From the NCBI GenBank assembly GCA_036172245.1, contig JAYWIR010000087.1, positions 1 to 64,000 of the forward strand: DNA of 64,000 bases. Reading direction: 5' to 3'. Shown here piece after piece: positions 4,321 to 64,000 of the stretch; positions within the stretch are counted from its first letter, which is position 1; each line of letters begins with the position of its first letter. The translations under genes were made by a program, and so were the position numbers. The stretch is from Raillietiella orientalis (Eukaryota). Under the pieces are notes generated by a model. That model saw only the letters and a program-made list of their open reading frames with translations, ran no database searches and was not told the DNA's origin.

Positions 4321-4664
4321 TCCGGAGACCCCTGCGACCTCTCGCCCACCCATACCTTGTCCCCTTTCGCTCAGTGAAATTTCCGGTGCATATGCTTTCA
4401 TCTCCGTGTCTTCCAGAGCGATCCCAAGGACCCATATCGCGTCCTCCTTATTTATTGTTTTTATTTTATTTTGGTTTCTTTGTGTATCCCGCCCCCCCCA
4501 ACTCCGTTCTTAAAAGTGTTACTCTGTCCTGCGTGCCAGCAATATTCTTTTTATTCTTGTTCAGTCGTCGGCTGGGAGTTTGGTTCCCAACTAGTTTATT
4601 TTGTATAATTGTTTTTTTTGTTTATGTTATATGGAATAAACCCCCCGGCGTGACCGGGTGAGAA

Positions 4665-30652: not shown

Positions 30653-30815
30653 GACGCCGCGCTCGATAAAGTCGCGGAGGAGCCCGCGGCAACGTTCGCT
30701 GTCAGCTATGACGCCGTGCTCGATAAGGTCGCGGAGCAGCCCGCGGCAACGGTCGCCGCTGGCAAAGACGCGGCCTTCGAGAAAGCGGCGGAGGAGCTCG
30801 CAGCAACGCTCGCCG
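30653..30815 (+). repeat. Three 57-bp coding tandem repeats in M ORF1
   Basis: Units start at 30653, 30710 and 30767; they encode DAALDKVAEEPAAT / DAVLDKVAEQPAAT / DAAFEKAAEELAAT. Confidence 0.9.
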
Positions 30816-32326
30816 AGCGCGAAACCCCGTCGCGCAAGGGCTTACGCAGGTCGGCTCCGACGAAGAAGCCCCCGCAGGTGAGTGCGACCTGGGGGCCGGA
30901 AGCTGATCCTCCTCCTCGGAGGCACCCCCCAGGAAGTCGGGACGCAAGTCCCAGAAACCCAGGAGGCGCCTCCCTTCCACCAGCGAGGAGGAGAAACCGG
31001 AAGGTAGCGGCAGCGTGGGAATCCCAGAGGAGGAATACCCACGCCCGGAAGCCGTCGAGTCGGCCACCCCCATAGAGGAGGGAGAGCAGGTGGGTGAAGT
31101 CCTCCCTGCAGTCGCGAAACCTAAGCAGCCCGAACCCATGGAGAAAGGCGAACAGGTAGGCGCGACTCCACCTGCGGGTGATCCGGCCGACGCGCCGGCA
31201 CCGATGGAGGAGGAGGAAAAGGTGCCTTCAGTACCTGTTCCCCCTCCCCCTCCAACTAGAGTCCCGCCTCAGCAGATGGCGGACGCCGCATCGCCGTTTT
31301 CCCTGGACTAACACCTGGGCTCGCCAGTCGCCGTCGGATTCGCGCGGCCTGTTGGAACGTCAAGGGGCTGCGCGACGACGGCAACAGGCGAGATACAGCG
31401 GACACCCTGCGTGAGCTCGACCTGGCGCTGCTGCAGGAGATCCACGTGTTCACCGCGGCAGACGCCCAGGAAATCGAGACAATCGCGGGGGGTCGGCTGT
31501 ATTGGCGATGCGGCCTCCGCAACACCTGCGGGGTCGCGTTCTTCGTGAAGCCGGCCATCGACGCTGCCGTGAAGGGCGTGCGCTTCGATGACGACGGTCG
31601 GGTCGGTCAGCTGATACTCAGCTGGTCCGACTCGATCGACCTAATCGTCACAAACGTGTATGGTTCCAGCGGCAAACAGGGGTACCGCGACCGCACCAGG
31701 CTGCTGGAAACCCTAAAGCGCGACTGGCTGGCGGATACCAATGTGCGAAGGGCTCACCTGATAGCGGGAGATTTCAATCTCCGCCTGCTAACAGGTGAGC
31801 CGGAAACACAAGTGAACGCGATGAACGAGTTGTGCGGCGCCATGCGTGCGCGCAACTTGTTTGCGGGTGAGAAGGGGAATGGTCCGCAGCATCGACCACG
31901 TCTTCCTCGACGATGATTTGTGTTCACGGGTAGGCAAACAGGGGAGGGTTGCGTTACGCTTTAGGACCATTCCCGGCTAATTTTCTAGATGCGCCCTTGC
32001 GACAAAAGACCGCCATCCAGGGATTGGCGTCTGCCGGGGGACTGGACGCGACTCTCAGGTGCGAAGAAACACCTTCGCGAATACCTGAGAGGCGTCACGC
32101 TCCGGAATCTCCATTGAAACCCGGGTGCGCCGGGTCGTTTATTCTCACGAATAAACCTATACAATTTGTGACTGGACCAGTAGTCCAGCCACGCCCTGGA
32201 AAGATATAGCTTGCCGGGCTACCGGCGCGCAGACCGGCGCGGTCGACCTCGGCAGCAGAGGGGAGGGGGAACGAAACAAATAGAAAACCAAAAATTAACA
32301 AAAATCAGGGAAGGAGCGGAAAGGGA

Positions 32327-37549: not shown

Positions 37550-40500
37550 TGCTGCCTAATCCTCCACCCACACCACGCACAAGCACCAACGGAAATGGAA
37601 CTCAGGAGCAACGAAAAGACACCTCCGCTCGACGCTCCGGAATCTCCAGTACTGGGACCTTTTTAAGGAATCGGTCCGCGAGTTCTGTTTGCAGTTCCCC
37701 CTGGATCGCCTGCCCCCCGTATTCGGAGAGGGTGCTCGCAACCATCGGGCCTATTTACAGGCTCGTAGGTACGAGAGAACCCTTAATGTCCGTCTCCTGG
37801 CTAAGTACCGCGCCTGGGCCGAACGCCAAGCCTGGTAATCCGGGTCGGCCAGCTTGCTGGACGACCAGGGCCGGGAATGTTCGTCCCCGGCGTCGGTACG
37901 GCATCTCGTGCATAGTTTGTATTCCTGTCTTTACACCAGGGAGCCCCCGGATTGAAACGCCTCTCATCGCTTGCTTCCGGATGGCGTCCCGGCAATAGGG
38001 GAGGAGGAGATGGAATGCCTCGACGAGGCTTTTACCACCGGCGAAACTCTCGCCGGTATCAAAAGGCTCAAGAGGCGTAAAGCTCCAGGGGAAGAAGGCT
38101 TGCCCGCGGAGTTCTTTTAGAGCTTCGCGGAAGAGCTGGCACCCCTGCTGCTTAAGTTGATCAGGCTGATCCGAGACGAAGGCGATGTTCCCGCCTCGTT
38201 TCGGTCAGCCAGAGTAAGGCTCCTTCCGAAAGGGATAGACCTCAGGGATTTAAAGAACTGGCGTCCGATCACGATCGTGAATACGGACGTCGAGTTGATA
38301 GCAGGGCTATGGGCTTCGCGTCTGGGGCAGGTGGCAGAATCCGTAATTAGCCCGGAGCAGACTTATGCTGTTCCCGGGCGAAGTATGGATGCCAACCTCT
38401 TTTTCGCAAGCACATGGGTGCACCTGCAGAGAAGACAAAAGAAAGGGATAGAGAAAGTCGGCAACCCTACATTGCGGCCGCCAGTCGGGCTGGGAAGAAA
38501 CCCTCGGGCGGGGAAGGGGGCCCTAGCGCTCTCAGTCGACCTCCACAAGGCGTTCGACTGTGTAGACCAGGAACTCCTCTTGGAGCTCCTGGGTCGCATG
38601 GGCTTCCCACCTTCCCTGATTACCTACCTGCGCTCTTGCTGACGGAATGCGATGATTACCGTCTGTTTCAGTGGACAGAAGGTGTATGGCGTGCCGGTGC
38701 GGCGGGGCATAAGGCAGGGCGATAGCCTCAGCCCCCTGCTCTTTAGCACCTACTTTGAGTTGGTGCTGAGAGCGTACAGGGTGACTTTGGCCCTCTTGCC
38801 GAGCTCGTGCCCCGGCCCGCCCGCCGTAGCAGCGTACGCCGACGATCTTCTGCTCTTGTTGCCAATGTCCACCCCGGCAAATGCGGTCGGAGACTTCTTC
38901 GATCTGCTCAGCCGCGGGATCGGACTGCAGGTTAACAGGGCGAAGTCGTCGGTTGTGTCAATAGGTGCGGCGTGGGCAGGGCAGCAGGACTGGGTCCGTC
39001 TGGGGATCCCTTTGGCGAGGTGCTTTAAGTACCGCGGTGTGCCGTTGGGGGACTTCTCCCCTGCGGAAGCGTGGTCCAGCTGCCTCCAAAAAGTCGAGAC
39101 GGCGATCGGCCCGTTCCTGGAAGGCAAGTTTCACTTGCCGGAACGGGCCGCGGTTTGGAACGCCTTCGCGGCCCCCATCCTTTGCCCCTTGCTTTTTGTT
39201 TGCCCCCCCACCGTGGAATCCAAGAAGAGGACAAAGGACCTCCTCCGTATCGCCCTTTGGGGCAAGGGGAGGCCCCGAGTCCCTCTGAAGCACTTGTGCG
39301 CTCCGCGTCGAGACGGCGGTCTTGGCCTCCTGACGCTGGAGCGCGCGGAGAAGCAGCTGCGGTGGCGAACCCTCGCCATCGACACTAAGATGTGGAGCAC
39401 CCCTTGGTGCACTCCGGCCGGCCTCCTGGCCTGCCGTGTGTCCCGGTGCGATGGACTCGCGTCTTTTCTTCTGAGCCGTGGCCAGATGCGAAGATGCGGC
39501 CTACTCCACCGGCGCATGGCAACATTGGCTAAGGAGAACAGCTGGATGGTTTGCTGCCCCCCCAACTCCACCGCCTGGCTGGAGGAGAATATTGAAACGT
39601 GGGCAGTAGTTAACCAGAGGAGAAACGAAACGTGGAATCGTCTCCGATGCAGCCCCTACGCCCGCTGCACGCTGCGGAATCTCCTGGATTGTCCAGCAAG
39701 ATGCACCTGGGCATAGACGACCTGCCTAGCTACGGCGCTGCCCTTCCTGAGGAGGGCACTTCACAGCAGCCGGACGCCAATGTGGCAAGTCTCCTGCTGC
39801 ATCGAGGGACGCTAGAAGTTGATCAGCGGCTGGACAACAGGAGAACTGGCCGACACCACGACCCCGAGCGTCCAGCCGCAAGGATTAAGAAGATAGGGCG
39901 AGCTGCTGGCCATCCCTATGGATGTGCTGAAGTGGCCCCCGCTTCTTCAGGAATCCAGGATCCTGTTGCTTAAGTGGAAAGATTCGGCGTTGCTGTTGTT
40001 GCATTGGGGTTTACCCTGCAACGCACGCCGCTCTCACTGGACAAGAGGAGTTGTGGATCCTGCGTGTGTCAGGTGCGGAGAGCGGGAATCGCTCTCCCAC
40101 CTTATTGTGAACTGTGCTGCCCTTCGTCCCCTTTGCGAACGGTTTGGGACGATCCTCGGTCTCCCAACGGGCAGTTCCCCTAGAGACGTTCTTCGGCCCC
40201 TCTTCGTGAAGGACGTTCTGCAGCCAGCCGCAGCCCTTGCAGCCTTGTGCTTCGTCCGAGGCATCGTGGCGGCATGGAGCGACACCAACAAGGAAGGAGT
40301 GGGTCAACACGCGAGGGATGTCATCCCATATGCCCAACGCTTCTTGCGGAGAGCTGCTGGATGGCCCCAACTGAGGAATATACGGATGGACTTCGAGAAC
40401 TTCCTTCAACGGATGGGCCCTCCTCTCAGCGAACAGTGATCCCTTCCCTGTCCCCCATCCTCATTTTTTTTTTGCCTTTTGCTTTTATTTTTGTTTTTCC

Positions 40501-42298
40501 CCATCCCCTTTCGCTACCGGGGAGTGCCACGCCGGGCTGCGTCCCGGTGTCCCGGCAGTTCCGGTATTGCGTGGCCGTCAGTGGGGCCTTGTACCACGTT
40601 CTGTAGGCCACAATCTTCGATGGCTACGATAGCCTTTTCGGAGAACCGGCTGCCGCGCGTGTGACCATTTAGAAGGATAGTGGGCCTCCCCACAAACAAG
40701 AGGTCAATGACCAGGACGTAGACCTCTGGTACGTGGGGAAACTTCGCTTTTGTGGCTACTGCAATGCAGTAGGACACTTGCGCAAGCGAGGCCTGAACAT
40801 TGTGTGCCACTTAAGCGGGAAGAAGGGCCACGTGCGCCGCTTATGCCCTAAACGTGTCACTCCAAAGCCGCCTGCCGCAAAGAAAGCGCAAGCAAAACGC
40901 GGAAAACTGGTCGAAAGGCCAAAAAGAGATACTGGTTGGCAACAGCCGCTAGCCCTTGTTCCTCCCACACAGGCGTCGAAAGAAAAACCATCCGAAGACG
41001 CGGGAGTTCAAAACGGCTGGCAGTTGGTAAAGGCCAGCAAGGAGAAAAAGGTGCCCTCCGCGGAACCCGCGAAAGCGATAAAAAAGACAGCCGGCAAGGC
41101 GAAAAAACCTGGGCCGCGCTCGAAGACCATGCGGGAATGTACGGTGGCACTGGAGCGCATAGCCGTTCCCGAGACTGCCACTCAGGGCGACGAGCCTTCC
41201 CTCGCCGCTTCCGCCGTCCCCGAGGTTCGCGACGACAAACCCTCTGTTTGCACAAAGGGTCTGCCGCGCGAAGCGCGCGTTGAAAGCGAAGACGTCGCGT
41301 TCGCGCAGGCGGCGGAGGAGCGCGAGGCCTCGCTGGCCGAGCGTGAGAACTCCTCACGCAAGGCCGTGCGCAGGCCGACTCCGCCGAAGAAGGCCCCCCG
41401 CAGGTGAGTGCGACTTGGGGGCCGGAAGTGCATCCTCCTTGTCGGAGGCACCCCCCGGAAGAAGAGACGCAAGTCCCAAAAGCCGAGGAGGCGCTTCCCC
41501 TCCACGAGCGAGGAAGAGAAGCAGGAAGCCGACGGCAGCGTGGGAATCCAGGAGGGGGAAATCCCACGCGCGGAAGTTGTCGAGCAGGTCACCCCCATGG
41601 AGGAGGGTGAGCAGGGGGGCGAAGTCCTCCTTGCCGGCGCAAACCCTGTACAGCCCACCCTTATGGAGGAAGGCCAACAGGTAGGCGCGACCCCACTGGA
41701 GGATGACCCGCCCGACGCGCGTCACCGATGGAGCAGGGGAACCAGGTGATCGAGGCACCTGTCCCTCCTGCTCCACCTAGCGTCCCACCCCAACAGGTGG
41801 CGGACGCCGCAGAGCCGCATTTCCAGGAATGACACCTGGGCTCGCCAGTCGCCGTCGGATTCGCGCCGCCTGTTGCAACGTCAACGGGCTGCGCGACGAC
41901 GGTAACAGGCGAGATAGGGCCTACACCCTGCGTGAGCTCGACCTGGCCCTGCAGCAGGAGATCAACGTGATCACCGTGGCAGACGCACAGGAGATCGAGA
42001 CGATCGCATGGGGTCGGTTGTATTGCCGATGCAACCTCCACAAAACCTGCTGGGTCTCGTTCTTCGTGAAGCCGGCCATCAACGCTGCCGTGAAGGGCGT
42101 GGGCTCCGATGACGACGGTCGGGTCATTCAGCTGGTTCTCAGCTGGTCCGACTCGATCGAACTGATCGTCACGAATGTGTACGCCCCCAGCGGTAAACAG
42201 TGATACAGAAACCGCACCAGGCTGCTGAAAACCCTGAAGCGCGACTGGCTGGCGGACACGAACGTGCGGAAGGCTCACCTGATAGCGGGAGATTTCAA

Positions 42299-45200
42299 CC
42301 GAGTGCGGACGTGTTTTTCTTCGCTCTCGTCTCCGTGCTTCCATCCGCTTTATCTTGGGGTCGTACATTTTGACGACGATGTCGACCCCACCCGAAGCTA
42401 CTGAAGTTGGAGGAACAGCATCCGGATCTGCAATGGCGGAACCGACGGCCGCCTCCACTTCGTCTTTTTCACCAATGGAGAGGAGTTTTGCTGACGTTGC
42501 TGCCACAGCAGCCGTCAAAGGGAAACCACTCGACGAGTCGGAGTTGCGGGCATACGTAGCCCAAGGCTATAGACCTGCTCTCCGATATTAGGTGAGTGGT
42601 TTTCTTTCTGCGCGCGACGGGAATCAGTTCAACGATTGAACTGACCCGTGTTGACGTGCGGGAGGAGGACCTCCTCGCCATTATGCCCGTAAAAGACATG
42701 GGCTATTTCAAGGTGCGTTGCAAAGAAGCTGCACTTGTGCAACGCTTACTGCGCACCCCGTTGTCGATCCGTGGGCAGAAGGTCTTCCCGGCCGCCATGG
42801 ACGACTCATTTGAGGCGGAGATTTTCGACATCGGGTTGGAAATCTCGGATATTGATATTCCGAACGCGTTGGCGAAATTCGCCACTGTCCATGCGCTGTG
42901 GAGGGTGCCTAGCAACCTCAAGGACTTCCCGTCCATACACAGCAGAGTCGCTGGTGTCCGGCTTACAATGCCGGACCGCTGTCTGCTGCCCACCAAACTA
43001 CAGGTGAAAGACACAATCGTTCACCTGTGGTTCGTAGGCAAAGTAAGAAAGTGCGAGCAATAAGGGAAGGAGGTGCATTGTTTGGATAAATGCTTCTCTC
43101 AGAATGCCGTTATTGCAAACTATCCGGGCATCAATTGAAAAATTGCCCGGATCTTTTGCAAAAAAGGCAGCCGCGGAGCTCCATCCTAAAAAACAAAGCG
43201 CGGAAAAAAAGAAAAAATCTGCGAAAGACCTCGAGACCCCACGGCAGAAATTCCGTAAGAACGCTAGGCGGAATGTCGCCCCAAAGCAGCAGGGTACCTC
43301 GCACGCGAAGCCCTGCGCGCCCCCTTTCGCGGCAAGGGAGCCGCAAAAGAAAGGCTGCGGTGAATCCGGGACAATGATAAGTCTCCCTAGACGCAAAAGC
43401 TGTCCTTCCCAAGCACGCCCGGCTCTCTCGGAGTTCAAGCAACCGGCGGGGACGCCAATGAACAACGACAATAAGGACACTTCCAGTACCGTCAGATCCA
43501 ATCCTACAGCACCTGCAGTGGCTGAGAAGCCCAAATCGGGTAAGAAAGGTATTGCCGTGTCGACTTCGAACGTCGGCAAAAAACAATCCGCGTCACGATC
43601 CAACACCGCGAAAGCGGAGAAAAATCTCACGCCGTCGCAGTCGGAGAGCAAGCTCTCGACTGGCGCGGATGCCATGCCAACGAAGGGATTCAAGGCCCTT
43701 CCGAAGGCAGCGTCCATGACGAGAGTGTCGGAGCCATCGAGAGTGCTCCCGTCAAAAGACGCGTATGGCTTCAAAGATGGCAATAGAGCACAATCTCCAT
43801 TTACGGCGGCACGCGAAGTGAGGAACCGTAATGAAGTGAAGAAGACTTCAGCAAAGGTCCCTCGTGCAACTGCGCGTGAGCACGCTGAGAACGCGCGCGC
43901 CGGGAAAGCAGCCGTCACCAAAAGCGATGCTTTGGTGACGAAAAACGACAACAGGACAGCTGTCAATCCAGCAGAACGTGTGACTACTTCGCGGAAGGCC
44001 GAAACCCGATCAAACATGCGCCGTTCGGACTCGGAAATGGATATAGTTCCGATCACCGAGACGAGGACAACTCGTTCAAAAGCGTGTGCGCGCCGATCAA
44101 AAGTAGGGAGCCAGGCAACGCTCGCCGCGAAGCAACGCGAAGTCTCCACGAAACCCGACGGGGTTAAGCCTGGCGTGATGTCATTACATGCATACAGCAC
44201 GACAGAGGACGGTGGCGAATGTCCTCTCCAGCCAGTCGTCCTGCTCTCCGTCTGCTTGCCGGATAAAACGAGCAAAAAGCCGCCACCTCCTCAGCAGTGA
44301 TGCGGGGTATCGCGTCTTCTCTTCGTCTGTCCGTAACGTGTTGGAACGCGAACGGACTACAGAAGGACGAGAAGAGGCGAATAGTAGCCAACACCCTGCG
44401 CTCCTTCGACGTGGCGCTCCCGCAGTAGATTCACGTAATCTCCTACAAGCAGGCAGCCGAAATCGCGGAGCGCGCAGGCGGAACGCTACATTGGCGGTGC
44501 GGGGGCGCACACACGTGCGGCGTCGCGTTCCTCGTAAGTGGAAAAACTGCGGAAGCGGTGCGTAGTGTTCGTTTCGACGACGACGGACGGAAAGGCCAGC
44601 TTGTCATCAAGTGGTCCGAGTTTATCGATCTCGTCGTTACGAACGTCTACGCGCCGAGTGGCTCTCGCTACCTCGAAGAAAGAGTAGCTTTCTTTGGTGA
44701 GGTGCAGAGTCACTGCTCCAACAACTCCGGCTTCCAAGTGGCGCACCTCGTTGCTGGGGACTTCAACGTCCGCCTGCTTTCCGACGATTGGAGCCGCCCG
44801 AGGGAGCACGCGCATCTCATGGAGATGTGCGCGTCCGTGCACGCCGCCAACTTGATGGTCAGCGAACCTGAAATGGAAAGAAGGCTGGATCACGTTTTCC
44901 TCGATAAAAACCTGCATTCGCGTGTGGGTAGGACAGGAAGATTGTTGACTAGGCACTCTGACCACCACAGGTTGGAGTTTGAGATCGTTCCGCGAAGCAG
45001 GGGGCCTTTGTTGCAAAACTGGAGGATGCAGGCAGATTGGCTTAGCCTACCGGCGGCTGCGGAGCATCTACGTGGATAGCTCCGAGGCTTTGCTATTTAA
45101 GAAATTGCTGACTGGGACGATCTCAAAAGATCTGTCCGCGAGCACGGCAGCCAATTCCCCTTGCACCGGCTTCCACCGGTTTTGGAGAAGGCATGGCCAA

Positions 45201-48200
45201 CGGTAGAGACTTTCTGCAGACCCGCACGTTTTCGAGACGCGCGGATGTCGAACGTCTCGCGGAGTACAAGGCGAGGGCCGAGCGCCACGTCTGGCAGTCC
45301 GGAGCAGCATGCCTGCTGGACGACAAGGGCAAGGAATGTTCGGCTTCAGCCGAAGTATGCCGCATTGTGAGACGCTACTACTCCTCGCTGTACGCGGAAT
45401 CTCCAACGGAGGATATTCTCTCTGAGATACAACTGTGTCAGGATGATCGTGTTGTCGGCGAGAAGGAACGCGAAGGACTCAACGAGCCCTTAACGGCGGA
45501 TGAATTTTCGTCTGCCATTGCTGTGCTGAAGAGACGGAAGGCGCCATTCGAGGATGGGCTACCTGCAGAGTTTTATCAGTGCTTTGAAGTGGAGCTCATT
45601 CCCTTGATGCTGAGACTAGCGACGGTGATGAGTGAATCCGGGAATGTCCCGGATTCCTTCCGCTCAGCGAAGGTGCGTCTCCTGCCGAAAGGCGAAGACT
45701 TGCGTGAACTTAACAACTGGCATCCCATCACCTTGGTGAACTCCGATATCAAGTGGTATTCCAAGCTGGGGGTCGTGCGGTTACGAAGTATCGCGGAATC
45801 TGTGGTGAGTCCGGAACAAACCTACACGGTTCCGGGACGATCCATGGAGGCGAACATCCTCTTCGCGCGTACATGGATGCAGCTGCAGGAAGTTGTGACG
45901 AAGCAAAGCCAGGCTGCTGCGAAAGTCACTGCCGCAGGCAAGAAGAACAGGCGCCGACAGCAGGAGGGAACGCCATGCGCCTTGGCGGTCGCGGTCGTTC
46001 TCCACAAGGCGTTCGCCTGCGTAAACTAGAAGCTGCTCTTGGAGCTTATAGAAAGCCTTGGGTTTCCGGCGCAACTCCTGCTGTATTTGCACCCGTGCTG
46101 GCGCCAGGCGCTAACCTGCATCACTTTCAGCGGCTGCTGCGTGTATGGTATTCCCGTTCGTAGGGGCATCCGAAAGGGCGACAGCTTAATCCCGTTGCTC
46201 TTCAGCATCTTCTTTTCGTTGGTGCTAAGAGCATACAGGCTGACGCTGTCTCACTTGCCAAGCTCCTGCCCGGGAACGCCAGCTGTGGCCGCCTACGCTT
46301 ATGACCTGCTTCTTCTGCTCCCCATGTCCACCCCGGCGTCTAGTGTCGAAAATTTGTTCGACCTCATTCGTCGGGGAGCTTGTGTGAGCGTGAACAGAAA
46401 GAAGAGCGTGGTCGTTCCTGTCGGTACGTCGTGGGAGGGGCAGTCCGACTGGATCCGCTTGGGGATCTCCACGGGCGGGTACTTTAAGTACCTTGACGTT
46501 CCGTTGGGCGCTTACGGCGCAGCCGTCGCGTGGGCGGACTGTCTTAAGAAAGCACAGTTAGCCATCAGCCCGTTCTTAAACAGCAAGTTTACATTGCAGG
46601 AACAAGCGACTGTTTGAAACACTTTTGTGGCCCCCCTCCACCGTCCCCTGTTTTCTGTTTTGGGCCCCCCCTATGCGGCGAAACAGAGGGCTAAACGCCT
46701 GCTCAGGAACGCTCTCTGTGAACCGGCGAGATCCAGGAACCGCCTTAAAGATTTGTAAGCTCCGCGTCGGGATGCTGGTTTGAGTATCCTGACAATGAAG
46801 CGAATCGGACTGCAGGTGCAGTTCCTACTGCTGGCACTGTGTACCCAGCTATGGACATCCCCCCTGTGTGTGCCAACCCGCGTACTCCTGCGAAGATGCG
46901 CCGGCAGCGGAGGATTTCTCTCGCTTCTGCCGGGCACTCAATACAGGAAGCGGGGTTTCGGGTTTCCATTGCGGCAGTTGACCGCACTTCTGGAAGCTCA
47001 CACGTGGATCTCCTTTCGCCCAATGAACTATGAAGCTTGGCGGCAGAAGTCCGTTAAATCCTGAGCGGCGTTACAAGAAATACGCCCTGAATATCTTCGC
47101 CCTTTGCGCCAATTTTTTCCACGATTCTTGGAAGAAGTACTGCAGGACGAGGTGAGGTTTTCAACCCTGGCTGCCACGCCTCTTGCCGCAGCTCTGTCTG
47201 CCCTCAGGGCAAGTAACGACAGTTACCAACCAACGAGGTGGGAGGATTTCTGCACGATAGCGGGAAAAACAAAACTTCTTGGCGCCTCGAAGGCGAGTGA
47301 GTTGGCGGACGCCGCCACTCCTCGTGTTACTGCAAAGGGACTCCTCCGGTGGGCAGAAGAACTTGCTGTCACCCCCGAAGAACTTGCAGTGTCTCCACAG
47401 TGCATTGACAGTTTGCTGCTCCCCCTTGCTTGGAAACAAGCCGTGCTGCTTTTCGTTCACTGGAATTTTCAGTGCAACGAGCGTTGGCATCGGGACTCCG
47501 GTGGACTTGCTTCTCCGAACTGCGTTCGGTGCGGATCGACGGAGTCGATTCCGCACCTACTTCTGGACTGCGCTGTCCTACAAGGACTGTAGCGTAGGCT
47601 GGCAACAGCACTAATGCATCCCGTGGACACCGCTAGAGACTTGCGGCGACGATTCTTCACGCCGAGAGGGCTGTCACTAAGCGCAAGGATTGCAACCATT
47701 GGTTGCATACGCGCGATAGTTTCCGTCCGCAAGGCGTTGGTAATCAAAGGGCAGCACCAAGAGGTTACCAGCAAAGCATCCTTCTACATGGGAGCATCCG
47801 CTAGATGGCCTCATTTGACAGAGGAGACAAAAAGGAATCTCGCCGCATTACACCGCCGGTTTACACACGCTCAGCAGCGGCCAACCCGGTGATCATTGCC
47901 CTATCCTCCATAAACTATTTTTGTATTTTCTTTTTACACCCGCGTCCCCATAGGCACCGGAACATTCCAGGTGCTCATCGTAAAAATCCTGGTGAGTACG
48001 GAGCCTATCCAAAAACCCGTTACCCTTCCCTCCAGTTTTTGATTTTTGTTTGTTTCCCCTAATTCCTTCCACGCTGCGAGCGGTTTGTTTACCTGTCCTG
48101 CGTTTCAATAATTTTTCTATGTTCTCTGTCGTTCTCTTGGTTGGGGACATTGTCCCTGACCAGTTTATTATTATTAATAAACGCACCGGCGTGACCGGGT

Positions 48201-48205
48201 GATAA
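42299..48205 (+). mobile_element. Element F1: full-length LINE
   Basis: Flanked by atttcaa (42292-42298 and 48206-48212); ORF1 42379-44300, TGATG overlap, ORF2 44300-47892. Confidence 0.93.
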
Positions 48206-48212
48206 ATTTCAA

Positions 48213-51200
48213 TGGAGTGCGGACGTGTTTTTCTTCGCTCTCGTCTCCGTGCTTTCATCCGCATCATCTTGGCGTGGTGCATTGACGACGATGTCGACCC
48301 AACCCGAAGCTACTGAAGTTGGAGGAACAGCATCCGTATCTGCAATCGCGGACCTGACGACCGCCTCCAGTTCGTCTTTCTCGCCAATGGAGAGGAGTTT
48401 TGCTGACGTTGCTGCCACAGCAGCCGTCAAAGGGAAACCACTCGACGAGTCGGAGTTGCGGGCATACGTATCCCGAGGCTATAGACCTCTTCTCCGATAT
48501 AAGGTGAGTGGTTTTCTTTCTGCGCGCGACGGGAATCAGTTCAACGATGAACTGACGCGTGTTGGCGTGTGGGAGGAGGAGCTCCTCGCCATTATGCCCG
48601 TAAACGATATGGGGAATTTCAAGGTGCGTTGCAAAGACGCTGCACTTGTACGACGCTTGCTGCGCACCCCGTTGTCGATCCATGGCCAGAAGGTCTTCCC
48701 GGCCGCCATTTAGGACTCATTTGTGGCGGAGATTTTCGAAATCGAGTCGGAAATCTCCGATATTGATATTCGGAACTCGTTGGCGAAATTCGCCACGGTC
48801 CATGCGATGTGGAGGGTGCGTAGCAACCTCAAGGACTTCCCGTCCATACACAGCGGAGTCGGTGCAGTCCGGCTTACAATGCCGTTACGCCGTCTGCTGC
48901 CCACCAAACTACAGGTGAAAGACACGGTCGTTCACCTGTGGTTCGTGGGCAAAGTAAAAACGTGCGAGCAATGCGGGAAGGTGGGGCATTGTTTGGATAG
49001 ATGCCCCTCTGGAAAATGCCGTTCTTGCAAACTATCCGGGCACCAATTGAAAAATTGCCCGGATCTTTTGCGAAAAAAGTCAGCCGCGGAGCTCCATCCT
49101 AAAAAACAAAGCGCGGATAAAAAGAAAAAAACTGCGAAAGACCTCGAGACCCCACGGCAGAAATTGTGTAAAAACGCTAGGCGGAATGTCGCCCCAAAGC
49201 TGCAGGAAACCTCGCACGCTAAGCCCTGCGCGCCACCTCTCGCGGATGGGGAACCGCAAAAGAAAAAGTGCGGAGAATCCGGGGCAATGATAACTCCCCC
49301 TAGGCACAATAGCTGTCCTTCCCAAGCACGTCCGGCTCTCACGGAGTTCAAGCAACCGGCGGGGACGCCAATGGACAACGGCGGTAAGGACACTTCCAGT
49401 ACCGTCAGATCCATTCCTTCACCTCCTGCAGTGGCTGAGAAGTTCAAATCGGGTAAGAAGGGTTGTGCCGTGTCGACTTCGAAAGTCGGCAAAAAACAAT
49501 CCGCGTCGCGATCCAACACCGCGAAAGCGGAGAAAAATCTCACGTAGAAGCAGTCGGAGAGGAAGCTTTCGACTGGCGCGGATGCTGTGTCAACGAAGGG
49601 ATTTATGGCCCTTCCGAAGGCAGCGTCCATGACGAGCGTGTGGGAGCCATCAAAAGTGCTCCCGTCCCAATACGCGGATGGCTTCAAAGATGGCAATAGA
49701 GCACAATCTCTATTTACGGCGCCACGCGAAGTGAGAAACCGTAATGAAGTAAAGAAGACTTCAGCAAAGGTCCCTCGTGCAACTGCGCGTGAGCACGCTG
49801 AAAACGCGCGCGCTGGGAAAAAAGCCGTCACCAAAAGCGATGCTCTGGTGATGGAAAACGACAACAGGACAGCTGTCAATTCAGGAGAACGTGTCATTAC
49901 TTCGCGGAAGGCCGAAATCCGATCGAACATGCGCTGGTCGGACTCGGAGATGGATGTCGTTCTGATCACCGAGACGAGGACAACTCGTTCAAAAGCGTGT
50001 GCGCGCCGATCGAAAGTAGGCCGCCAGGCAACGCTCGCGGCGAAGCAACGCGAAGTCTTCACGAAAGCCGACGGGGTTTCGCCTGGCGTGGAGTCATTGG
50101 ATGCATGCAGCACGACAAAGGACGGTGGCGAACGTCCCCTCCAGCCAGTCGTCCTGCTCGCCGTCTGCTTGCCGGATAAAGCGAGCAAAAAGCCGCCACC
50201 TCCTCAGCAGTGATGCGGGGTATCGCGTCTTCTCTTCGTCTGTCCGTAACGTGTTGGAACGCGAACGGACTACAGAACGACGAGAAGAGGCGAATAGTAG
50301 CCAACACCCTGCGCTCCTTCGACGTGGCGCTCCTGCAGGAGATTTACGTAATCTCCGACGAGCAGGCAGCCGAAATAAAGAAGCGCGCAGGCTGAACGCT
50401 ACATTGGTGGTGCGGCGGCGCACTCACGTGCGGCGTCGCGTTTCTCGTACGAGGAAAAATGGCGGAAGCGTTGCGTAGTGTTCGTTTCGATGACGACGGA
50501 CGGATAGGCCAGCTTGTCATCAAGTGGTCCGAGTCCATCGATCTCGTCGTTACGAACGTCTACGCGCCAAGTGAATCTCGCTACCTCGAAGAAAGAGTAG
50601 CTTTCTTTGGTGAGGTGCAGAGCCAATGGCTCAACAACTCCCGCTTCCAAGTGGCGCACCTTGTCGCTGGGGACGTCAACGTCCGCCTGGTCTCCGACGA
50701 TTGGAGCCGCCCGAGGGAGCGCGCGCTGCCCATCGAGATGTGCACGTCCGTGCACGCCGCCATCTTGATAGTCAGCGAACTTGGAATAAAAAGATCGCTC
50801 GATCACGTTTTCCTCGATGAAAACCTGCATTCGCGTGTGGGCAGGAGAGGAAGATTGTTCACTAGGCACTCTGACCAAAACAGGTTGGGGTATGAGGTCG
50901 TTTGGCGAGGCAGGGGGCCTCCGTTGATAAACTGGAGGATGCAGGCGGATTGGCTTAGCCAACCGGAGGCTACGGAGCATCTACGTGGGTATCTTCAAAG
51001 CTTTGCCATTCAAGAACTTTCGGACTGGGACAATCTCAAAAGATCTGTCCGCGAATTCTGCTGCGAATTCCCCTTGCATTGGCTTTCACGCGGTTTCGGA
51101 GAGGGCGTGGCCAACAGTAGAGACTTTCTGAAGGCCCGCACGTTTTCCAGACGCGGGGACGTCGGAAGTCTCGCGGAGTACAAGGCGAGGGCCGAGCTCC

Positions 51201-54117
51201 AGGTCTGGCAGTCCGGAGCAACATGCCTGTTGGACGACAAGGGCCAGGAATGTTCGGCCCCAGCCGAAGTACGCCGCATTGTGAGACGCTACTACTCCTC
51301 GCTGTACGCGGAATTCCCGACAGAGGATATTCTTTCTGAGATACTCCTGTCTCAGGATGCTCGTGTTGTCGGTGAGGAGGAACGCGAACGTCTCAACGAG
51401 CCCTTCACGGCGGATGAATTTTCGACTGCCATCGCTGGGCTGAAGAGACGGAAGGCGCCAGGCGAGAATGGGCTCCCTGCAGAGTTTTATCAGTGCTTTG
51501 AAGTGAAACTCATTCCCTTGATGTTGAGACTCGCGACGTTGATGAGTGAATCCGCGAATGTCCCGGATTCCTTCCGCTCAGCGAAGGTGCGTCTCCTGCC
51601 GAAAGGCGGAGACTTGCGTCAACTTAACAACTGGCGTCCGATCACATTGGTGAACTCGGACGTCAAGTGGTATTCCCAGCTGTGGTTCGCGCGGTTAGGA
51701 AGTATCGCGGAATCTTTGGTGAGTCCGGAACAAACCTACGCGGTTCCGGGACGATCCTTGATGGCGAACATCCTTTTCGTGCGTACATGGATGCAGCTGC
51801 AGGAAGTTGTGGCGCAGCAAAGCCAGGCTGCTGCGAAAGTCACTGCCGCACGGAAGAAGAACAGGCGCCGACGGCAGAAGGGAACGCCAGGCGTCTTGGC
51901 GGTCGCGGTCGATCTCCACAAGTCGTTCGACTGCGTAAACCAGAAGCTGCTTTTGGAGCTTATGGAACGCTTTGGGTTCCTTGCGCAACTCGTGCTGTAT
52001 TTGCGCGCGTGCTGGCGCCACGCGCTATCCTGCATCACTTTCAGCGGCTGCCGCGTGTATGGTATTCCCGTTCGTAGGGGCATCCGACAGGGAGACAGCT
52101 TAAACCCGTTGCTCTTCAGCATCTTCTTTAGGTTGGTGCTAAGAGCACACAGGCTGACGCTGTCTCACTTGTCAAGCTGCTGCCCGGGAACGCCAGCCGT
52201 GGCCGCTTACGCTGATGACCTCCTTCTTCTGCTCCCCATGTCCACCCCGGCGTCCAGTGTCGAGAATTTTTTTGACCTGATTCGTCGAAGAGCGGGCGTG
52301 AGCGTGAACAGAGAGAAGAGCGTGGTCGTTCCTGTGGGTACGTCGTGGGAGGGGCAGTCCGACTGGATCCGCATGGGGATCCCCACGGGCGGGTACTTTT
52401 AGTACCTTGGCGTTCTTTTGGGCGCTTTAAGCGCACCCTAAGCGTGGGCGGACTGTCTTCAGCAAGTAGAGTTGGCCATCAGTCCGTTCTTTAACGGCAA
52501 GTTTACCTTGCAGGAACAAGCGACTATTGGAAGCACCTTTGTGGCCCCCCTCCTCCGTCCCCTTTTTTTTGTTCTGAACCCCCCCTATGCAGCGAAACAG
52601 CGGGCTAAACGCCTGCTCAGGAACGCTCTCTGGGGTCTGGCGAGTTCCAGGATCCGCCTTAAAGATTTGTTAGCTCCCCGTTTGGATGCTGGTTTGGGTA
52701 TCCTGACAATGGAGCGAATCGGACTGCAGGTGCAGTTCCGACTGCTGGCACTGTGTGCCCAGCTATGGACATCCCCCTGTGTGTGCCAGCCCGCGTTCTC
52801 CTGCGGAGATGCGCCGGCAGCGGAGGATTTCTCTCGCTTCTGCCGGGCACTCAATAAAGGAAGCGGGGTTTCGGGTTTCCATTGCGGCAGTTGACCGCAC
52901 TTCTGGAAGCACACTCGTGGATCTCCTGCCGCCCAATGAACTTTGAAGCTTGGCTGCAGGAGTCTGTTGAATCCTGGGCGGCGTTCCCAGGAATACGCCT
53001 TGAAGATCTTCGCCCCCTGCGCCAATTTTTTCCACGATCCTTGGAAGAAGTACTGCAGGACGAGGTGAAGTTTACTAGCCTGGTTGGCACGCCTCTTGCC
53101 GCAGCGCTGTTTGCCCTCAGGGCAACAAACGACAGTTACCAACCGGCGAGGTGGGAGGTTTCCTGCACGATAGCGGGAAAAACCAAACTTCTTGACGCCT
53201 GGTAGACGAGTGAGTTGGCGGACACCGCCACTCCTCGTGTTACTGCAAAAGGACTCCTCCGGTAAGCAGAATTACTTGCTGTCACCTCCGCAGAACTTAT
53301 AGTCCCTCCACAGTGCATGGACAGCTCGCTGCTTCTTCTTGCTTGGAAACAAGCCGTGCTGCTTTTCGTTCACTGGGGTTTTCAGTGCAACGAGCGTTGG
53401 CATCGGGACTCCGGTGGACTTGCTTCTCCGAACTGCGTTCGGTGCGGATCGACGGAGTCGATTCCGCACCTACATTTGGACTGCGGTGTCCTACAAGGAC
53501 TGTGGCGTAGGCTGACAACAGCACTAATGCATCCCGTGGACACCGCAAGAGACTTGCTACGACGATTATTCACGCCGAGCGGGCTGTCACTAAGCTCAAG
53601 GATTGCAACCAGCGGTTGTATACGCGGGATAGTTTGCGTCCGCCAGGCGTTGCTAATCAACGGACAGCACCAAGAGGTAATCAGCAAAGCATCCGTCTAC
53701 ATGGGAGCATCCGCTAGATGGTGTCATTTCATAGAGGAGACAAGAAGGAATCTCGCCGAAATACACCGCCGGTTTACACACGCTCAGCAGCTGCCAACCC
53801 GGTGATGATTGCCCTACCCTCCATTTACTGATTTTGTAATTTCTTTTAACACCCGCGTCCCCATAGGCTCCGGAACATTTCAGGTTTTCATCGTTTAAAT
53901 CCCCGTGAGTACGGAACCTAACCAAAACCCGTTACCCTTCCCTCGAGTTTTTGATTCTTGTTTGTTTCCCTTCATTCCTCCCATGCTGCGAGCGGTTTGT
54001 TTACGAGGTCTGGGTGCCGGTTATTTTTCTATGTTCCCTGTCGTTCTGTTGGTTGAGGACATTGTCCCTGACCAGGTTATTATTATTAATAAACGCTTCG
54101 GCGTGTCCGGGTGATAA
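48213..54117 (+). mobile_element. Element F2: full-length LINE, head-to-tail with F1
   Basis: Flanked by atttcaa (48206-48212 and 54118-54124); ORF1 48291-50213, ORF2 50213-53805. Confidence 0.93.
50213..53805 (+). pseudogene. F2 ORF2; contains the longest open stretch in the window (647 aa, APE through RT YADD)
   Basis: ORF 50459..52402 with NVYAP, LDHVF, NWRPITLVN, KSFDCV, RQGD and YADD; stops elsewhere. Confidence 0.92.
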
Positions 54118-55935
54118 ATTTCAATCTCCGCCTGCCAACAGGTGAGCCTGAAACACAAGAGAACGCGATGATCGAGTTGTGCGCCGCCATGCGTGCGCAC
54201 AACTTGTTCGCGGTTGAGAGCGGAATGGCGCGTAGCATCGACCACGTTTTCCTCGACACTGACCTGTGTTCACGGGTCGGCAAATGGGGGAAGATTGCCT
54301 CGACGCTTTCGGACCATTCCGGGCTAATTTTCGAGATGCGGCCTCACGACAAGGGACCGCCATCCCGAATACCTGAGAAGTGTCACGTTCGGGAATCTCC
54401 AGGACTGGAACCTTTTTAAGGAATCGGTCCGCGTTTTCTGCGAGCAGTTCCCCCTGGATCGCTGCCCTTGGATTTGGCGAGGGTACTTGCAACCATCGAG
54501 CCTATTTACAGGACCTTCGTTACGAGAGAAAATCTAATGTCTGTCGCTTAGCCGAGTACAGCGCTGGGGCCGAACGCCAAGGCTGGCAATCCGAGTCGGC
54601 CAGCTTGCTGAACGACCAGGGCCGGGAATTTTCGTCCCCGGCGTCTGTACGGCATCTCGTGCAAAGATTTTATTCAGGCCTCTACGCCAGGACGCCTCCG
54701 GACCAAGATGCCTCTTGGCGCTTGTTCCCAAATGGTGCCCCGGCAATTGGGCAAGAGGAGTCAATGAGCCTCGACGAGCCTTTCGCTACCGGCGAAATTC
54801 TCGCTGGTATCAAAAGGCTCAAGAGGCGTGTTGCTTTGGAGGGGGACGGCTTGCCTGCGGAGTTCTTTCAGTGGTTCGCGGATGAGCTTGCCCCCCTGCT
54901 GCTCGTGTTGACAAGGCTGATCTGAAACAAAGGCGATGTTCCCGCCTCGTTTATGTCAGCCAGAGTGACGCTCCTTCCGAATGGTGGAGACCTCGGGGAT
55001 TTAAATAACTGGCGTCCCATCACCATCGTGAATACTGACGCCAAGATGCTAGCAGGGTTATGGGCTTCGCGTTTGGGGCAGGTGGCCGAGTCCATAATTA
55101 GCCCGGAGCAGACCTATGCTGTTCCCGGGCAAAGTATGGACGCCAACCTCTTTTTCGCAAGCACGTGAATGCACCTGCAAAGGAGAGAAAAAAAGGGAAA
55201 GGGAAAATCGGCAACCCAACATTGGGGCCGCTAGCGGGGCTGGAGATTGACCCCGGGGCGGGGAAGGGAGCCCTAGCGATCGCAGTCGATCTCTGTAAGG
55301 CGTTCGACTGTGAAGATCAGGAACTTCTCTTAAAGTTCCTGGGTCGCATGGGCTTCCCACCCTCTTTGATGTCCTACCTGCACTCTTGCGGGCAAAATGC
55401 GATGATTACCATCTCTTTCAGCGGTCACAAGGTGTATGGCGTGCCGGTGCGGCGGGGCAGAAGGCAAGGAGATCGCTTCAGCCTACTGCTCTTTAGCACC
55501 TACTTTGAGTTGGTGCTGAGAGCGTACAGGCTGACTTTTGCCCCCTTGCCGAGCTCGTGCCCTGGTTCGCCCGCCGTAAGAATTTATGCCGACGGTCTTC
55601 TGCTCCCGTTACCTATGTCCACCGCGGCGGAGGCAATCAGAGATTTCTTCGACATGCTCAATTGCAGCACCGGACTGCAGGTGAAGCTGACGAAGTCGTC
55701 GGTGGTGCCAGTTGGTGCAACGTGGGCAGGGCAGCAGGACTTGGTCCGTTTGGGGATCCCCACAGCGAGGTGCATCAAGTACCTTGGTGTGCCGTTTGGG
55801 GAATTCTTCCCTGTGGAAGCGTGGTCGAGGTTCCTTTAAAAAGTCGAGACGGCGATCGTCCCGTTCCTGGAAGGCAAGTTTAACTTGTCGGAACGGGCCG
55901 CGGTTTGGAACGCCTTGGCGGCCCCTATCCTCCGC

Positions 55936-60826: not shown

Positions 60827-61279
60827 CCATCTCCGCGCCACCCCGACGGAAGGCTGGAAGGAAGTCCAGCAAACCCCGGAAAGCTTCTACCCATACCGAA
60901 GGCGTGGAGTCTACTGCGGACAGCGAGGGTGCCATGAGCTTGGGAGAATCACTGGAATCGTCACCCGAGAGAGCAACACTCACAGACACGGAGGAGATGG
61001 AGAGGCTTGAAGCCTGAAAGGTAACCAAGGTGCCTGAGGAGGCCGAAACCCTAATGGTCATCTCACCCGCCTCGGAAGAGGCTAGTTCCATTACGCCGTC
61101 ATCTTCCCGGCAATAATGCCGGGAATCTCCTGCCTCCGTCGTCTGCACATTGCCGTATGGAACGTAAACGGCATGACAGGAGCCGGCAGGAGACGAGACA
61201 TGGCCGCCATTCCAGGATGGTTCGACCTTGCGCCGCTGCAGGAGATCCATGTGATCTCTGCAGAACAAGCGCAGGAGAT
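60827..61279 (+). mobile_element. Element B': B-family fragment starting exactly after the KAFD target of K; cut by A'
   Basis: Homologous to 4665-5118; preceded by aatcgaatgcttt (60814-60826); TAATG overlap at 61114-61118. Confidence 0.85.
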
Positions 61280-63498
61280 TTCTCACCCGGTCACGCCGGG
61301 GCGTGTATTCCATATAACATAAACAAAAAAAACAATTATACAAAATAAACCAGTTGGGAACCAAACTCTCAGCCGACGACTGAACAAGAATGAAAAGAAT
61401 ATTGATGGCACGCAGGCCAGAGTAACAGTTTTGAGAACGGTGTGGGGGGGGCGGGGAACACAAAGAAACCAAAGTAAAATAAAAACAATGAATAAGGAGG
61501 ACGGGGTAAGGGTCTTTAAGATCGCTCTGGAAGACACGAAGATAAAAGCATTGGCACCGGAAATTTTACCAAGCGGAAGGGGACAGGATATAGGTGGGCG
61601 AGAGGTTGAAGGGGTCTCCGGATTACGCCGTTCTCAAAGGTCTGTAAACCGGCGATGCATGCCGGTGATGTCCTCATTCACCTTGTCACGAAGATGAGAC
61701 CACCTTGAAGCCTTCTCCATGGATTGAGCTGCAAGCAGGTGAGCCTCCCTTCGCTGCGCCTAAAACTCCAGGGCGTAGCGGGCCTTGACGATGGCGCGAA
61801 CGCAACACATGGTTGCCACAATCGCGCCAACCGAAAGTACATTCCTGCTCAAGAAGCGCCGCAGCACATCAATGGCTGTGCCTCCTTGTGGCATGATGGC
61901 CGAAGTGAGCCTTCGCCACAGTTCCCGGAGGTCACCGTAGTCCAGCAAAAGGTGCGGAAAAGACTCGATCTCTCCGCACCTTAAACAGTTTGGCAGAGCA
62001 GCGCTCCCGGAAACGATGCTTCGCTGCCTATTACAGTGTAATGCACAATGTAAAAAGAGCAGCACATCTTGTTTCCACTTTAAGGGGAACACGGAGCTGT
62101 CCAAACAAACGGGGGGAACCACTATCTCTCAGGGGGGCACACTTAAATATTCGCTCCACCGAAGTATACCCTTCGCCCGATTCGGAGGAGCGGCGGCTTA
62201 CACCAGCTCCTTTGTCGTCCAACTGCCGAGGAGCTTACTGACTGCCGCCATTTTGCAGGAGAACTCCCATTCCGCCGGTAGACAACCGTGGTTGCTTGCA
62301 CTGAGGGCAGACAGCGCTGCGGCGAGTATTGTGGCGGGCAGACGATCCGACAACTTCTTGTCCTGCATGACTTCGTCCATTCGATGACTGAGGAGAAGTC
62401 GCAGGCGCCGAAGTTCTTCCGGGCGCGTTCCTTTGGAAGCTGCCTACGATGAAAAACATTCCTGCCGCCATGCATTAATGTTCATAAGGCGGCAGGAGAT
62501 CCAGCTTTGGGCTCCCAGTTGTGACGACAGCTGCCTCAGCGGGAAGCCAAACCCTATTCTGGTGTGCCGAAAGTGGGGTAGCAACGACAGCAGTCCCTCG
62601 CTTCCCGTGCAGCGCCTCAGTATAAGGCGTGCGGGTAAGTACCACGGCGTTCACTACTGTTTGGCACAGAGGCGCAGTATCCGAAACTGGACCTGCAGTT
62701 CGATGCTGTTTAAGTCGAGGATGCCCAAGCCTGCATCCTGACGCGCCGCCACCAAGTCTTTAAGTCTTACGCGGGATCTTGCAGCGCCCCGCAACGCTTT
62801 GCGTAAAAGGCGCTGCGCCTAGACTTTGACTTCCTGGGGAGTGGACAAACAAAATACAGGGGGCGGAAGAGGGGGGCAACGTAGGTGTTCCAGATGCAGA
62901 CCCGTTCCGGCAAGACGAACTCGCCTTCTGAAAACGGGCCAAGTGCACGCTCTGCCTTCCGAAGGCAGTCCGACCACTCTTCTGTGATGCAGAAGTCGCC
63001 CAACGGCACGCCAAGGTACCTGAGGTACCTGCCCGTGGAAATGCCTAGGTCGATCTAGTCGAACTGCCCTTCCCACGTCGCACCTACCGGAACAACCATA
63101 CACTTACTCCTGTTAACGCTCACGCCCGCACCGAGACGAATCAACTCAAAGTCTTCAAGCGATGTTGCCGGGGTGGACATGGGCAACAGGAGAAGCAGGT
63201 CGTTGGCATAGGCTGCCACGGCCGGCGTACCTGGACAGGATCTCGGCAGGTTGGCTAGCGTCAGCCTGTAAGCCTCCAGCACCAATTCAAAATAGATGCT
63301 GAAGAGCAGCGGGCTTCAGCTATCACCCTGCCCAATTCCTCGTCGTACCGGCACTCCATACACGCGACAGCCACTGAAAACAATGGATGTAATCGCATAG
63401 CGCCAGCAGGAGCGCAAGTTCGCCAACATGGATGTCGGGAGATTCAGACGTTCCAAAAGCTCAAGAAGAAGCTTTTGGTTCACGCAATCGAAAGCTTT
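61280..63498 (-). mobile_element. Element A': A-family 3' half, cut at its own KAFD motif
   Basis: Homologous to about 2440-4664; same junction with the B-family APE as A. Confidence 0.88.
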
Positions 63499-64000
63499 GC
63501 GCCCTTGCGGTCGCAATTAACTTGCGGAAAGCATTCGATTGCGTCCACTAGAATCTTCTTCTGGTGCTTCTGGAACGCTTGGGCTTCCTGGCCTCTTTAG
63601 TGGCCTATCTGCGCTCCTGCTGCCGCGACGCGCTCATCAACGTTACTTTCAGCGGGCAGTCCGTGTACGGCGTGCCGTTTCGGCGTGGGATACGGCAAAG
63701 AGACAGCCTGAGCCCCTTGCTCTTCAGTACGTACTTTGAGTTGGTACTGAGAGCGTACAGGGGATCTCTGGCGCACCTGCCGCACGATTGTGCCAGTACG
63801 CCGGCCGTTTCAGCGTACGCGGACGACATTCTGCTGCTGCTCCCTATGTCCACCCCGGCTGCGGCGGTCGAGGAGTTCTTCGACCTGCTGCATCGGGGAA
63901 CCGGACTTACGGGGAACAGGGTGAAGTCGTCCGTGATGCCAGTTGGTGCGGCGTGGGCAGGGCAGCAGGACTGGGTCCGTTTGGGGATCCCCACAGAGAG
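63499..64000 (+). mobile_element. Element Z: C/L-like RT fragment antisense to A', running out of the window
   Basis: AVAINLRKAFDCV..RQRDSLSP..LAHLPHDC..YADD. Confidence 0.8.

Follow-up and report, generated by a model that had tools for sequence, protein, structure and literature searches.

Structure of the F1-F2 locus

The 64,000-nt stretch of DNA analysed here (positions 1 to 64,000 of contig JAYWIR010000087.1, Raillietiella orientalis assembly GCA_036172245.1; hereafter the window) contains two full-length, apparently L1-like long interspersed nuclear elements (LINEs), F1 and F2, which lie head to tail within an older host LINE of the sibling family O and are bracketed by copies of the heptamer ATTTCAA. 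Both copies read on the strand of O, i.e., in the sense orientation, according to a tblastn map. We consider it reasonably likely that the F family is a site-specific LINE that inserted twice at a single O target. The features of the locus are as follows (ORF, open reading frame; UTR, untranslated region).

40605 to 42291 (start approximate), plus strand: left part of host LINE O copy 1, with the end of ORF1 and ORF2 residues 3-153, ending in AHLIAG
42292 to 42298, plus strand: target copy 1, ATTTCAA, within the O codons GAT TTC AA- (D-F-N)
42299 to 48205, plus strand: F1, full-length L1-like LINE, 5907 nt (5' UTR 42299-42378; ORF1 42379-44300; ORF2 44300-47892; 3' UTR 47893-48205)
48206 to 48213, plus strand: target copy 2, ATTTCAA, or ATTTCAAT when the T is counted as target
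48213 to 54117, plus strand: F2, full-length L1-like LINE, 5905 nt (5' UTR to 48290; ORF1 48291-50213; ORF2 50213-53805; 3' UTR 53806-54117)
54118 to 54125, plus strand: target copy 3 (ATTTCAAT), running straight into the right flank of O
54126 to 55935, plus strand: right part of host LINE O copy 1, ORF2 residues ~157-782, then broken by another element (tblastn match 54117-55935)
31764 to 31785, plus strand: empty target in the paralogous O copy 2, GCGGGAGATTTCAATCTCCGCC, holding the inverted repeat GGAGAT/ATCTCC

The three heptamers (42292-42298, 48206-48212 and 54118-54124) coincide with the element boundaries at spacings of 5914 and 5912 bases; the heptamer as such is not rare, with 13 occurrences in the window vs. 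6.5 expected. To the left of the pair, tblastn assigned 41838-42299 to residues 3-156 of O ORF2 and 40625-40876 to residues 183-266 of O ORF1. To the right, O is 86% identical to 31778-32018 and 83% identical to 37632-39181. The reading frame of O runs as AHLIAGDFN up to 42298 and the same frame picks up as FNLRLPTGEPETQE from 54118, in agreement with the sequence-only reading, which had placed two full-length elements in the GDFN codons of O with three ATTTCAA copies and had described O as resuming in register behind them. The exact boundaries and an empty paralogous site confirm this arrangement: O copy 2 is uninterrupted at the site, with the left part of O matching 30762-31777 (83%) and the right part 31778-32018 (86%), and its translation across the site is GATAGCGGGAGATTTCAATCTCCGCCTGCT. 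Because O copy 2 is continuous here, the insertion is seen to be clean, with a 7-bp duplication and no base lost. At the 5' junction of F2 the duplication measures 8 bp (ATTTCAAT), since the following base is the T of the target. Between F1 and F2 lies a single copy of the target, of the length of the duplication (48206-48212, or 48213).

The target sequence and proposed integration

The target, GGAGAT-TTCA-ATCTCC, corresponds to the GDFNLR codons of O and forms a perfect 6-bp inverted repeat. When compared with its own reverse strand, the 16-mer GGAGATTTCAATCTCC shows two mismatches, both within the spacer. In the window this 16-mer is intact in O copy 2 only, and its halves flank the F1-F2 dimer in O copy 1; one of the two exact O targets is thus occupied and the other (31767) is empty. 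A regular expression for the GD[FVLWI]N-type motif returned eight sites in the window, and the O target sequence was found at two of these, i.e., in both O copies. Another four of the eight, belonging to other LINE families, read ATTTCAAC followed by GTT, CTG or GTC; all of them bear ATTTCAA and are empty. The equivalent codons of the F copies themselves also differ from the O target, being GGGGACTTCAACGTCC in F1 and GGGGACGTCAACGTCC in F2.

44753 to 44767, plus strand: AGDFN codons of F1 itself (GCTGGGGACTTCAAC), unlike the O target
50666 to 50680, plus strand: equivalent AGDVN codons of F2

Read from the junctions, the first-strand nick would fall on the antisense strand at 5'-ATTGAAAT^CTCC and, if the stagger is 8, the second-strand nick on the sense strand would fall at the mirror-image position 5'-ATTTCAAT^CTCC. 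Full F junctions in other O copies would be predicted to take the form GGGAG/ATTTCAA(T)..F../ATTTCAATCTCC, where the slashes mark boundaries, with GAGTGCGGACGTG as the 5' end of the element.

A double insertion at this site could have proceeded as follows. The integration machinery of the F lineage would be directed to a short sequence that is confined to O, a sibling LINE family. The F endonuclease would nick the antisense strand, and the freed 3'-OH would prime reverse transcription of the F RNA from its conserved 3' end; a cut in the sense strand 7-8 nt downstream would give rise to the ATTTCAA(T) duplication. Each junction of the inserted copy would then hold the duplicated core together with one of the two arms. 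At one such junction, and in the same activity period, integration of a second F RNA would have followed, producing the order target-F1-target-F2-target, after which both copies would have decayed neutrally.

Divergence and decay of F1 and F2

Aligned end to end, F1 and F2 are 90.35% identical, differing by 560 mismatches and 9 gap openings; MAFFT counts 566 substitutions plus 7 indels. The identity is even along the element (85-94% per 300 nt). Disabling mutations were counted by reading both copies in the alignment frames: 10 in-frame stops and 4 frameshifts were found in F1, compared to 8 and 1, respectively, in F2, each of them private to its copy. None of these 23 mutations is common to the two copies, and just the two natural stop codons coincide; therefore, the last common ancestor of F1 and F2 had both ORFs open. 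Shared disabling mutations had been put forward in the sequence-only reading as the mark of a tandem duplication after insertion, and the comparison returned none. In F2, 668 aa of ORF2 remain open (50396-52402).

The differences show no third-position excess, being distributed as 128/101/119 over the codon positions of ORF2 and as 47/49/58 over those of ORF1. Among the ORF2 codons with a single difference, 75 changes are synonymous and 190 non-synonymous. This neutral substitution pattern indicates that the divergence postdates the release of both copies from selection and, together with its symmetry, that it arose once both copies were in place. Transitions and transversions number 278 and 288, respectively, and the CpG observed/expected ratio is 1.09-1.12; these values rule out decay of the repeat-induced point mutation type or decay driven by CpG. 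Divergence inherited from different active source subfamilies was likewise ruled out, given the missing third-position excess. F1 and F2 had been described from the sequence alone as visibly diverged, which the 9.6% divergence bears out; being neutral and post-insertional, however, this divergence is no evidence for separate insertions.

Changes were polarised with a 56%-identical sister element, F' (737-4300), as outgroup, giving 148 F1-derived, 126 F2-derived and 74 ambiguous changes (p=0.20). The counts on which three outgroups agree are 89 vs. 77, and the difference in disabling mutations (14 in F1, 9 in F2) is not significant. Each copy has decayed by ~4.8%. By this measure F1 and F2 are about equally old, with an age ratio of roughly 0.9-1.5. 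Three models are compatible with copies of equal age and an intact ancestor, namely two insertions close in time, a very early duplication, and one event involving two RNAs.

Two insertions, a tandem duplication or one event

The extreme 5' ends of the two copies read CCGAGTG (F1) and TGGAGTG (F2): bases 1 and 2 are both mismatched, and the 28 bases behind them match throughout. Under 10% random divergence, a mismatch of this kind followed by 28 matches has a chance of ~1% by our arithmetic. LINE 5' junctions typically vary between insertion events, and the differing first bases fit two independently formed 5' junctions. Together with the intact ancestor, they tip the balance toward independent junction formation and away from a later tandem duplication.

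Such a duplication would have started from a single F insertion, with the 7-8-bp target duplications allowing slippage or unequal exchange that added a second element plus one target copy, and with both copies decaying afterwards. The near-equal branch lengths, the uniform divergence along the element, the full length and identical ends of both copies and the presence of three target copies would all follow from this route. It must, however, have left none of the 23 disabling mutations in common, which by our arithmetic confines it to within ~1.25% divergence after insertion (a bound that uses the observed ~2.4 disabling hits per 1% divergence). Furthermore, the CC/TG difference ahead of 28 matching bases speaks against it, and 7 or 8 bases are very short for unequal exchange. 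Overall, we judge this history unlikely, if still worth serious attention.

The dimer could alternatively derive from one integration event. Having reached the 5' end of a first F RNA, the reverse transcriptase (RT) may have continued on the 3' end of a second RNA that ran on briefly into its former target; or the template may have been a dimeric read-through transcript of an already existing dimer. Exactly equal ages and an intact ancestor would be predicted, and with AATAAA placed 24-30 nt upstream of the element's terminus, an RNA end just beyond the junction is conceivable. The second RNA would nevertheless have to carry a read-through of exactly 7-8 nt, and a copied dimeric transcript predicts selected pre-insertion divergence or shared defects, neither of which is seen in F1 and F2. 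A single event is regarded here as distinctly improbable.

External junctions and the possible specificity of F

A related public run (X1; 12% of sampled words) contributed 132 contigs that align to the window. Only one of the 132 is at least 99% alike, and X1 is therefore not of the same genotype. One X1 contig, which is 6% different from the 3' kilobase of F1, runs through ATTTCAAT into CTCCGCCTGCT, the right flank of O; 11 bases of this flank equal the version in O copy 2, and the last base differs from the occupied O copy of the window. Another contig joins 42291 to 54118 and thus represents an empty O site, which is possibly a paralog. The only listed X1 contig on the O-left flank near the junction has 12 differences in ~65 bases, compared to 4-6% for the F-like contigs, and this mismatch indicates that the X1 copy of F probably does not lie at the orthologous locus. 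Judged by 11 flank bases in the listed contigs, the X1 copy is probably an additional, independent F-in-O junction. The expectation from the window sequence that other F copies would have the same flank is consequently borne out at one further F 3' junction (ATTTCAAT plus CTCCGCCTGCT) and depends on that junction. Parts of the 5' half of F1 and of the 3' end of F2 have no X1 contig cover, although such holes in the cover prove nothing.

These junctions bear on whether F has any sequence specificity. A family that merely prefers LINE-rich, possibly centromere-like chromatin could have struck the same place twice by coincidence or owing to local structure; the whole window consists of nested LINEs, the inverted repeat of the target could be a structural hot spot, and a published account has Zepp-type LINEs targeting existing copies (PMC8226300). 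On this basis, however, it is very unlikely that a single phosphodiester bond would be hit twice within 64 kb, the X1 junction has the same flank, and the sister lineage F' is equally base-precise at another site (see below), so that we give very little weight to an F family devoid of specificity. An assembly artefact, in which two diverged copies or haplotypes were wrongly placed in series, was also considered: the region is highly repetitive and none of the listed X1 contigs spans the F1-F2 junction, yet collapsed or duplicated haplotypes do not give a full-length divergence of 10% together with exact targets at three junctions, making this explanation highly improbable.

Several observations weigh against two site-specific insertions. 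The window contains one F locus, and every junction of an inserted F retains one arm of the inverted-repeat site. The target is therefore regenerated by half, and its reuse needs an enzyme that tolerates a half site. Near-equal branch lengths are predicted exactly by a duplication or a single event and merely allowed by two insertions, and a duplication acting through the target-site duplications would yield three target copies just as well. The X1 junctions could be orthologous rather than independent, and no listed X1 contig bridges the F-F junction. The evidence for specificity is thin, comprising this locus, one X1 junction and the occurrence of F' twice at another fixed site. Serial insertion into a regenerated target, as proposed in the sequence-only reading, therefore holds as far as the intact ancestor and the differing 5' bases go, and needs revision in that the target is half regenerated and the three copies also fit a duplication; the sequence specificity proposed alongside it would have the one locus and the one external junction on its side.

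Coding content and affinities of F

Each F copy comprises an 80-nt leader, an ORF1 of 640 codons, an ORF2 of 1197 codons whose start overlaps the ORF1 stop (TGATG), and a 3' UTR of ~313 nt. Two C-X2-C-X4-H-X4-C knuckles were read by eye in the ORF1 translation of F2, and Pfam returned no ORF1 match for F at E<=0.01. For ORF2, the Pfam reverse transcriptase model RVT_1 (PF00078; cut-off 29.6) scored 61.2 bits in F2 and 38 bits in F1. The Exo_endo_phos model (PF03372), which covers the apurinic/apyrimidinic endonuclease (APE) region, scored 23.6 bits on an F1 fragment, just below its cut-off of 24.5, and a zf-RVT match was weak (E 0.004-0.006) and below its cut-off. The N-terminal region is homologous in all LINEs of the window according to the tblastn map.

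In a comparison with human LINE-1 ORF2p and R2 from the PDB, the former (E 6e-37) was far ahead as the best solved relative of F. The AGDFN motif falls on G144-D145-F146-N147 of L1 ORF2p, within a weak stretch of the endonuclease alignment; D145 and N147 are taken here to be catalytic. With an RT, a candidate APE-type region and L1 ORF2p as its nearest solved relative, F is classed as an L1-like, APE-type LINE, a placement by nearest solved homologue.

Protein searches with F returned no relative above 26% identity, the best being fish, arthropod, dinoflagellate and metagenome proteins, and a protein atlas returned generic APE/RT clusters only. A metagenome protein scan with the open 668-aa piece of ORF2 gave 33 pattern matches and no relatives among them. 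Additionally, a metagenome scan with a 19-mer spanning the 3' junction gave 11 loci, none of which was similar by blastn or tblastn, and these were taken as chance matches.

A shared 3' end and the sister lineage F'

The last 30 nt of F, AATAAAC.C..CGGCGTG.CCGGGTGA.AA, occur at six places in the window (4635; 15203, minus; 20397, minus; 48176; 54088; 61280, minus) compared to none expected. F terminates in GGGTGATAA, GATAA, with neither an A-run nor a poly(A) tail. Outside these 30 nt, the 3' UTRs of F and F' are unalignable, and the conserved motif is likely, on this pattern of conservation, to be an element for recognition or initiation by the RT. A 3' terminal hairpin was also considered; it folds no better than shuffles (z -0.6 to -1.8), and no structure is claimed.

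48176 to 48205, plus strand: 3' terminal motif of F1 (AATAAA...CGGCGTGACCGGGTGATAA)
54088 to 54117, plus strand: 3' terminal motif of F2, same as F1
F-family 3'-end motif: CGGCGTGNCCGGGTGATAA
4635 to 4700 and 61240 to 61309, minus strand: F' insertion sites

Copies of the F' type end at 4664 and 61280, adjoining ATATCCAGCGCTTGTTCTGCAGAGATCAC and ATCTCCTGCGCTTGTTCTGCAGAGATCAC, in two different host copies. Read in antisense, these flanks correspond to the host ORF2 codons LQEI(Y/H)VISAEQA, near an LQE motif, and an X1 contig has the same LQEI..AEQA flank behind an F'-type end. For F', the closest relative of F, base-precise targeting at the codon level is thus demonstrable by replication within the present data, in the opposite orientation; F' is, on these flanks, a second and better replicated site-specific lineage. 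The sense orientation of F had been singled out from the sequence as unlike that of the other elements, and indeed at each of the three other mapped 3' junctions (4664 and 61280, both F', and 20397) the element runs antisense to its host.

The last of these elements has the same 3' motif (ending in GACAA; 20350-20426, minus strand) and lies antisense after the host codons AKEIKRIAGKQL. With a site ~12 codons away from that of F', it probably represents a third lineage that has a target of its own.

The first bases past the 3' end are ATTTC for F (48206 and 54118) and ATATC or ATCTC for F' (4665 and 61279). Because both flanks begin with AT.TC, this suggests that F and F' have a common nick core, GA.AT^, on the primed strand and lineage-specific outer recognition.

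A further likeness concerns the last bases of F, CCGGGTGAT, and the left arm of the target, GCGGGAGAT, which are alike at seven of nine positions and are followed by AAA and the target core (48190-48213 vs. 31764-31778). The resemblance may be coincidental, or it may have been left behind when target sequence was captured at the 3' end.

Comparison with known systems and implications

R1 elements of insect 28S ribosomal DNA form tandem dimers and arrays, and tandem dimers of R1 and other transposable elements in which a single target duplication separates the copies have been attributed to two insertions in the same target unit (McGurk and Barbash 2018; PMC5932611). F resembles R1 in being an APE-type LINE with an apparently fixed target and head-to-tail copies separated by exactly one target duplication. 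In contrast to R1, the target of F is a protein-coding motif of another LINE rather than ribosomal DNA, the duplication is 7-8 bp rather than 33 nt, and the best solved relative is L1 ORF2p.

Tx1L of Xenopus is an L1-group LINE that inserts in the DNA transposon Tx1D, and Keno and Mutsu are other LINEs of the Tx1 group. F would likewise be an L1-group APE LINE with a CCHC ORF1 that occupies one sequence inside another multicopy element; the host of F is, however, a sibling LINE and the site consists of endonuclease active-site codons.

The closest solved homologue of the F RT, human LINE-1 ORF2p (PDB 8uw3, 8sxt and 8c8j), has its regions in the order APE, RT and C-terminal Cys-rich, as F appears to have. 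Nicking by L1 is loose, at TTTT/AA, and its priming uses poly(A), whereas F ends in GGGTGATAA with no A-tail and shows one exact site.

Zepp of Chlorella and Coccomyxa and ZeppL of Chlamydomonas are reported to be LINEs of the L1 type that enter LINE copies already in place and thereby form dense nested clusters, and the Zepp arrays are described as mostly 5'-truncated 3' ends (PMC8226300). The window is likewise a nested LINE-in-LINE cluster. Unlike Zepp, F1 and F2 are full length, lack a poly(A) tail and occupy a base-precise site. What is new here is the target, a palindromic sequence that holds the endonuclease active-site codons of a sibling LINE; a limited literature search found no paper describing LINE-into-LINE codon targeting.

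Combined, the observations on F and F' allow a broader proposal, which is offered tentatively and is more doubtful than the double insertion of F. Sibling LINEs with a common 30-nt 3' end may have had their endonucleases retuned to codon-level sites in each other's endonuclease genes (F to GDFNLR of O, in sense; F' to LQEI..AEQA, in antisense). The inverted-repeat site of F would be cut symmetrically at AAT^CTCC on both strands, such that one recognition mode makes both nicks. Hits would destroy the catalytic motif of the rival, and selection on the rival would conserve the target. Such LINE-on-LINE hyperparasitism could by itself build a nested, possibly centromere-like array, and the lineages would form a natural series of reprogrammed APE-type integrases.

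Site-specific LINEs are rare; their value lies in modelling how an APE-type endonuclease becomes specific and in serving as a basis for targeted gene insertion. If the proposal is true, homing to the active-site codons of a sibling LINE would be a new kind of safe haven, one that is multicopy, harmless to the host and held constant by selection on the victim element, and it would provide a mechanical explanation for the growth of dense nested LINE arrays. F and F', with the same 3' end and different targets, would then offer a natural comparison for mapping the determinants of specificity. The present locus provides one clean, well-dated example.

Other features of the window

The window is a dense nest of related LINEs on both strands, with 43 direct-repeat families and 45 fragments detected by tblastn with one ORF2. 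The O copies are themselves arranged head to tail at a spacing of ~10.5 kb, and the starting points of both lie at comparable places in ORF1; the 5'-truncated start of O copy 1 adjoins O copy 2 at the 3' end of the latter (~40605 and 29964).

Two full ORF2 copies on opposite strands (10394-6836, minus, and 25330-28902, plus) share an identical 42-nt GDFN region (9906-9947, minus, and 25777-25818, plus) and have near-equal tblastn scores; they may represent a large inverted duplication rather than independent insertions. Finally, inverted or permuted ORF2 fragments were found at 62818-63995, where aa 569-797 (minus) lie beside aa 562-725 (plus), and at 12171-12760, where aa 571-719 are followed by aa 466-512; these resemble twin-priming 5' inversions or further nested hits at one RT site.

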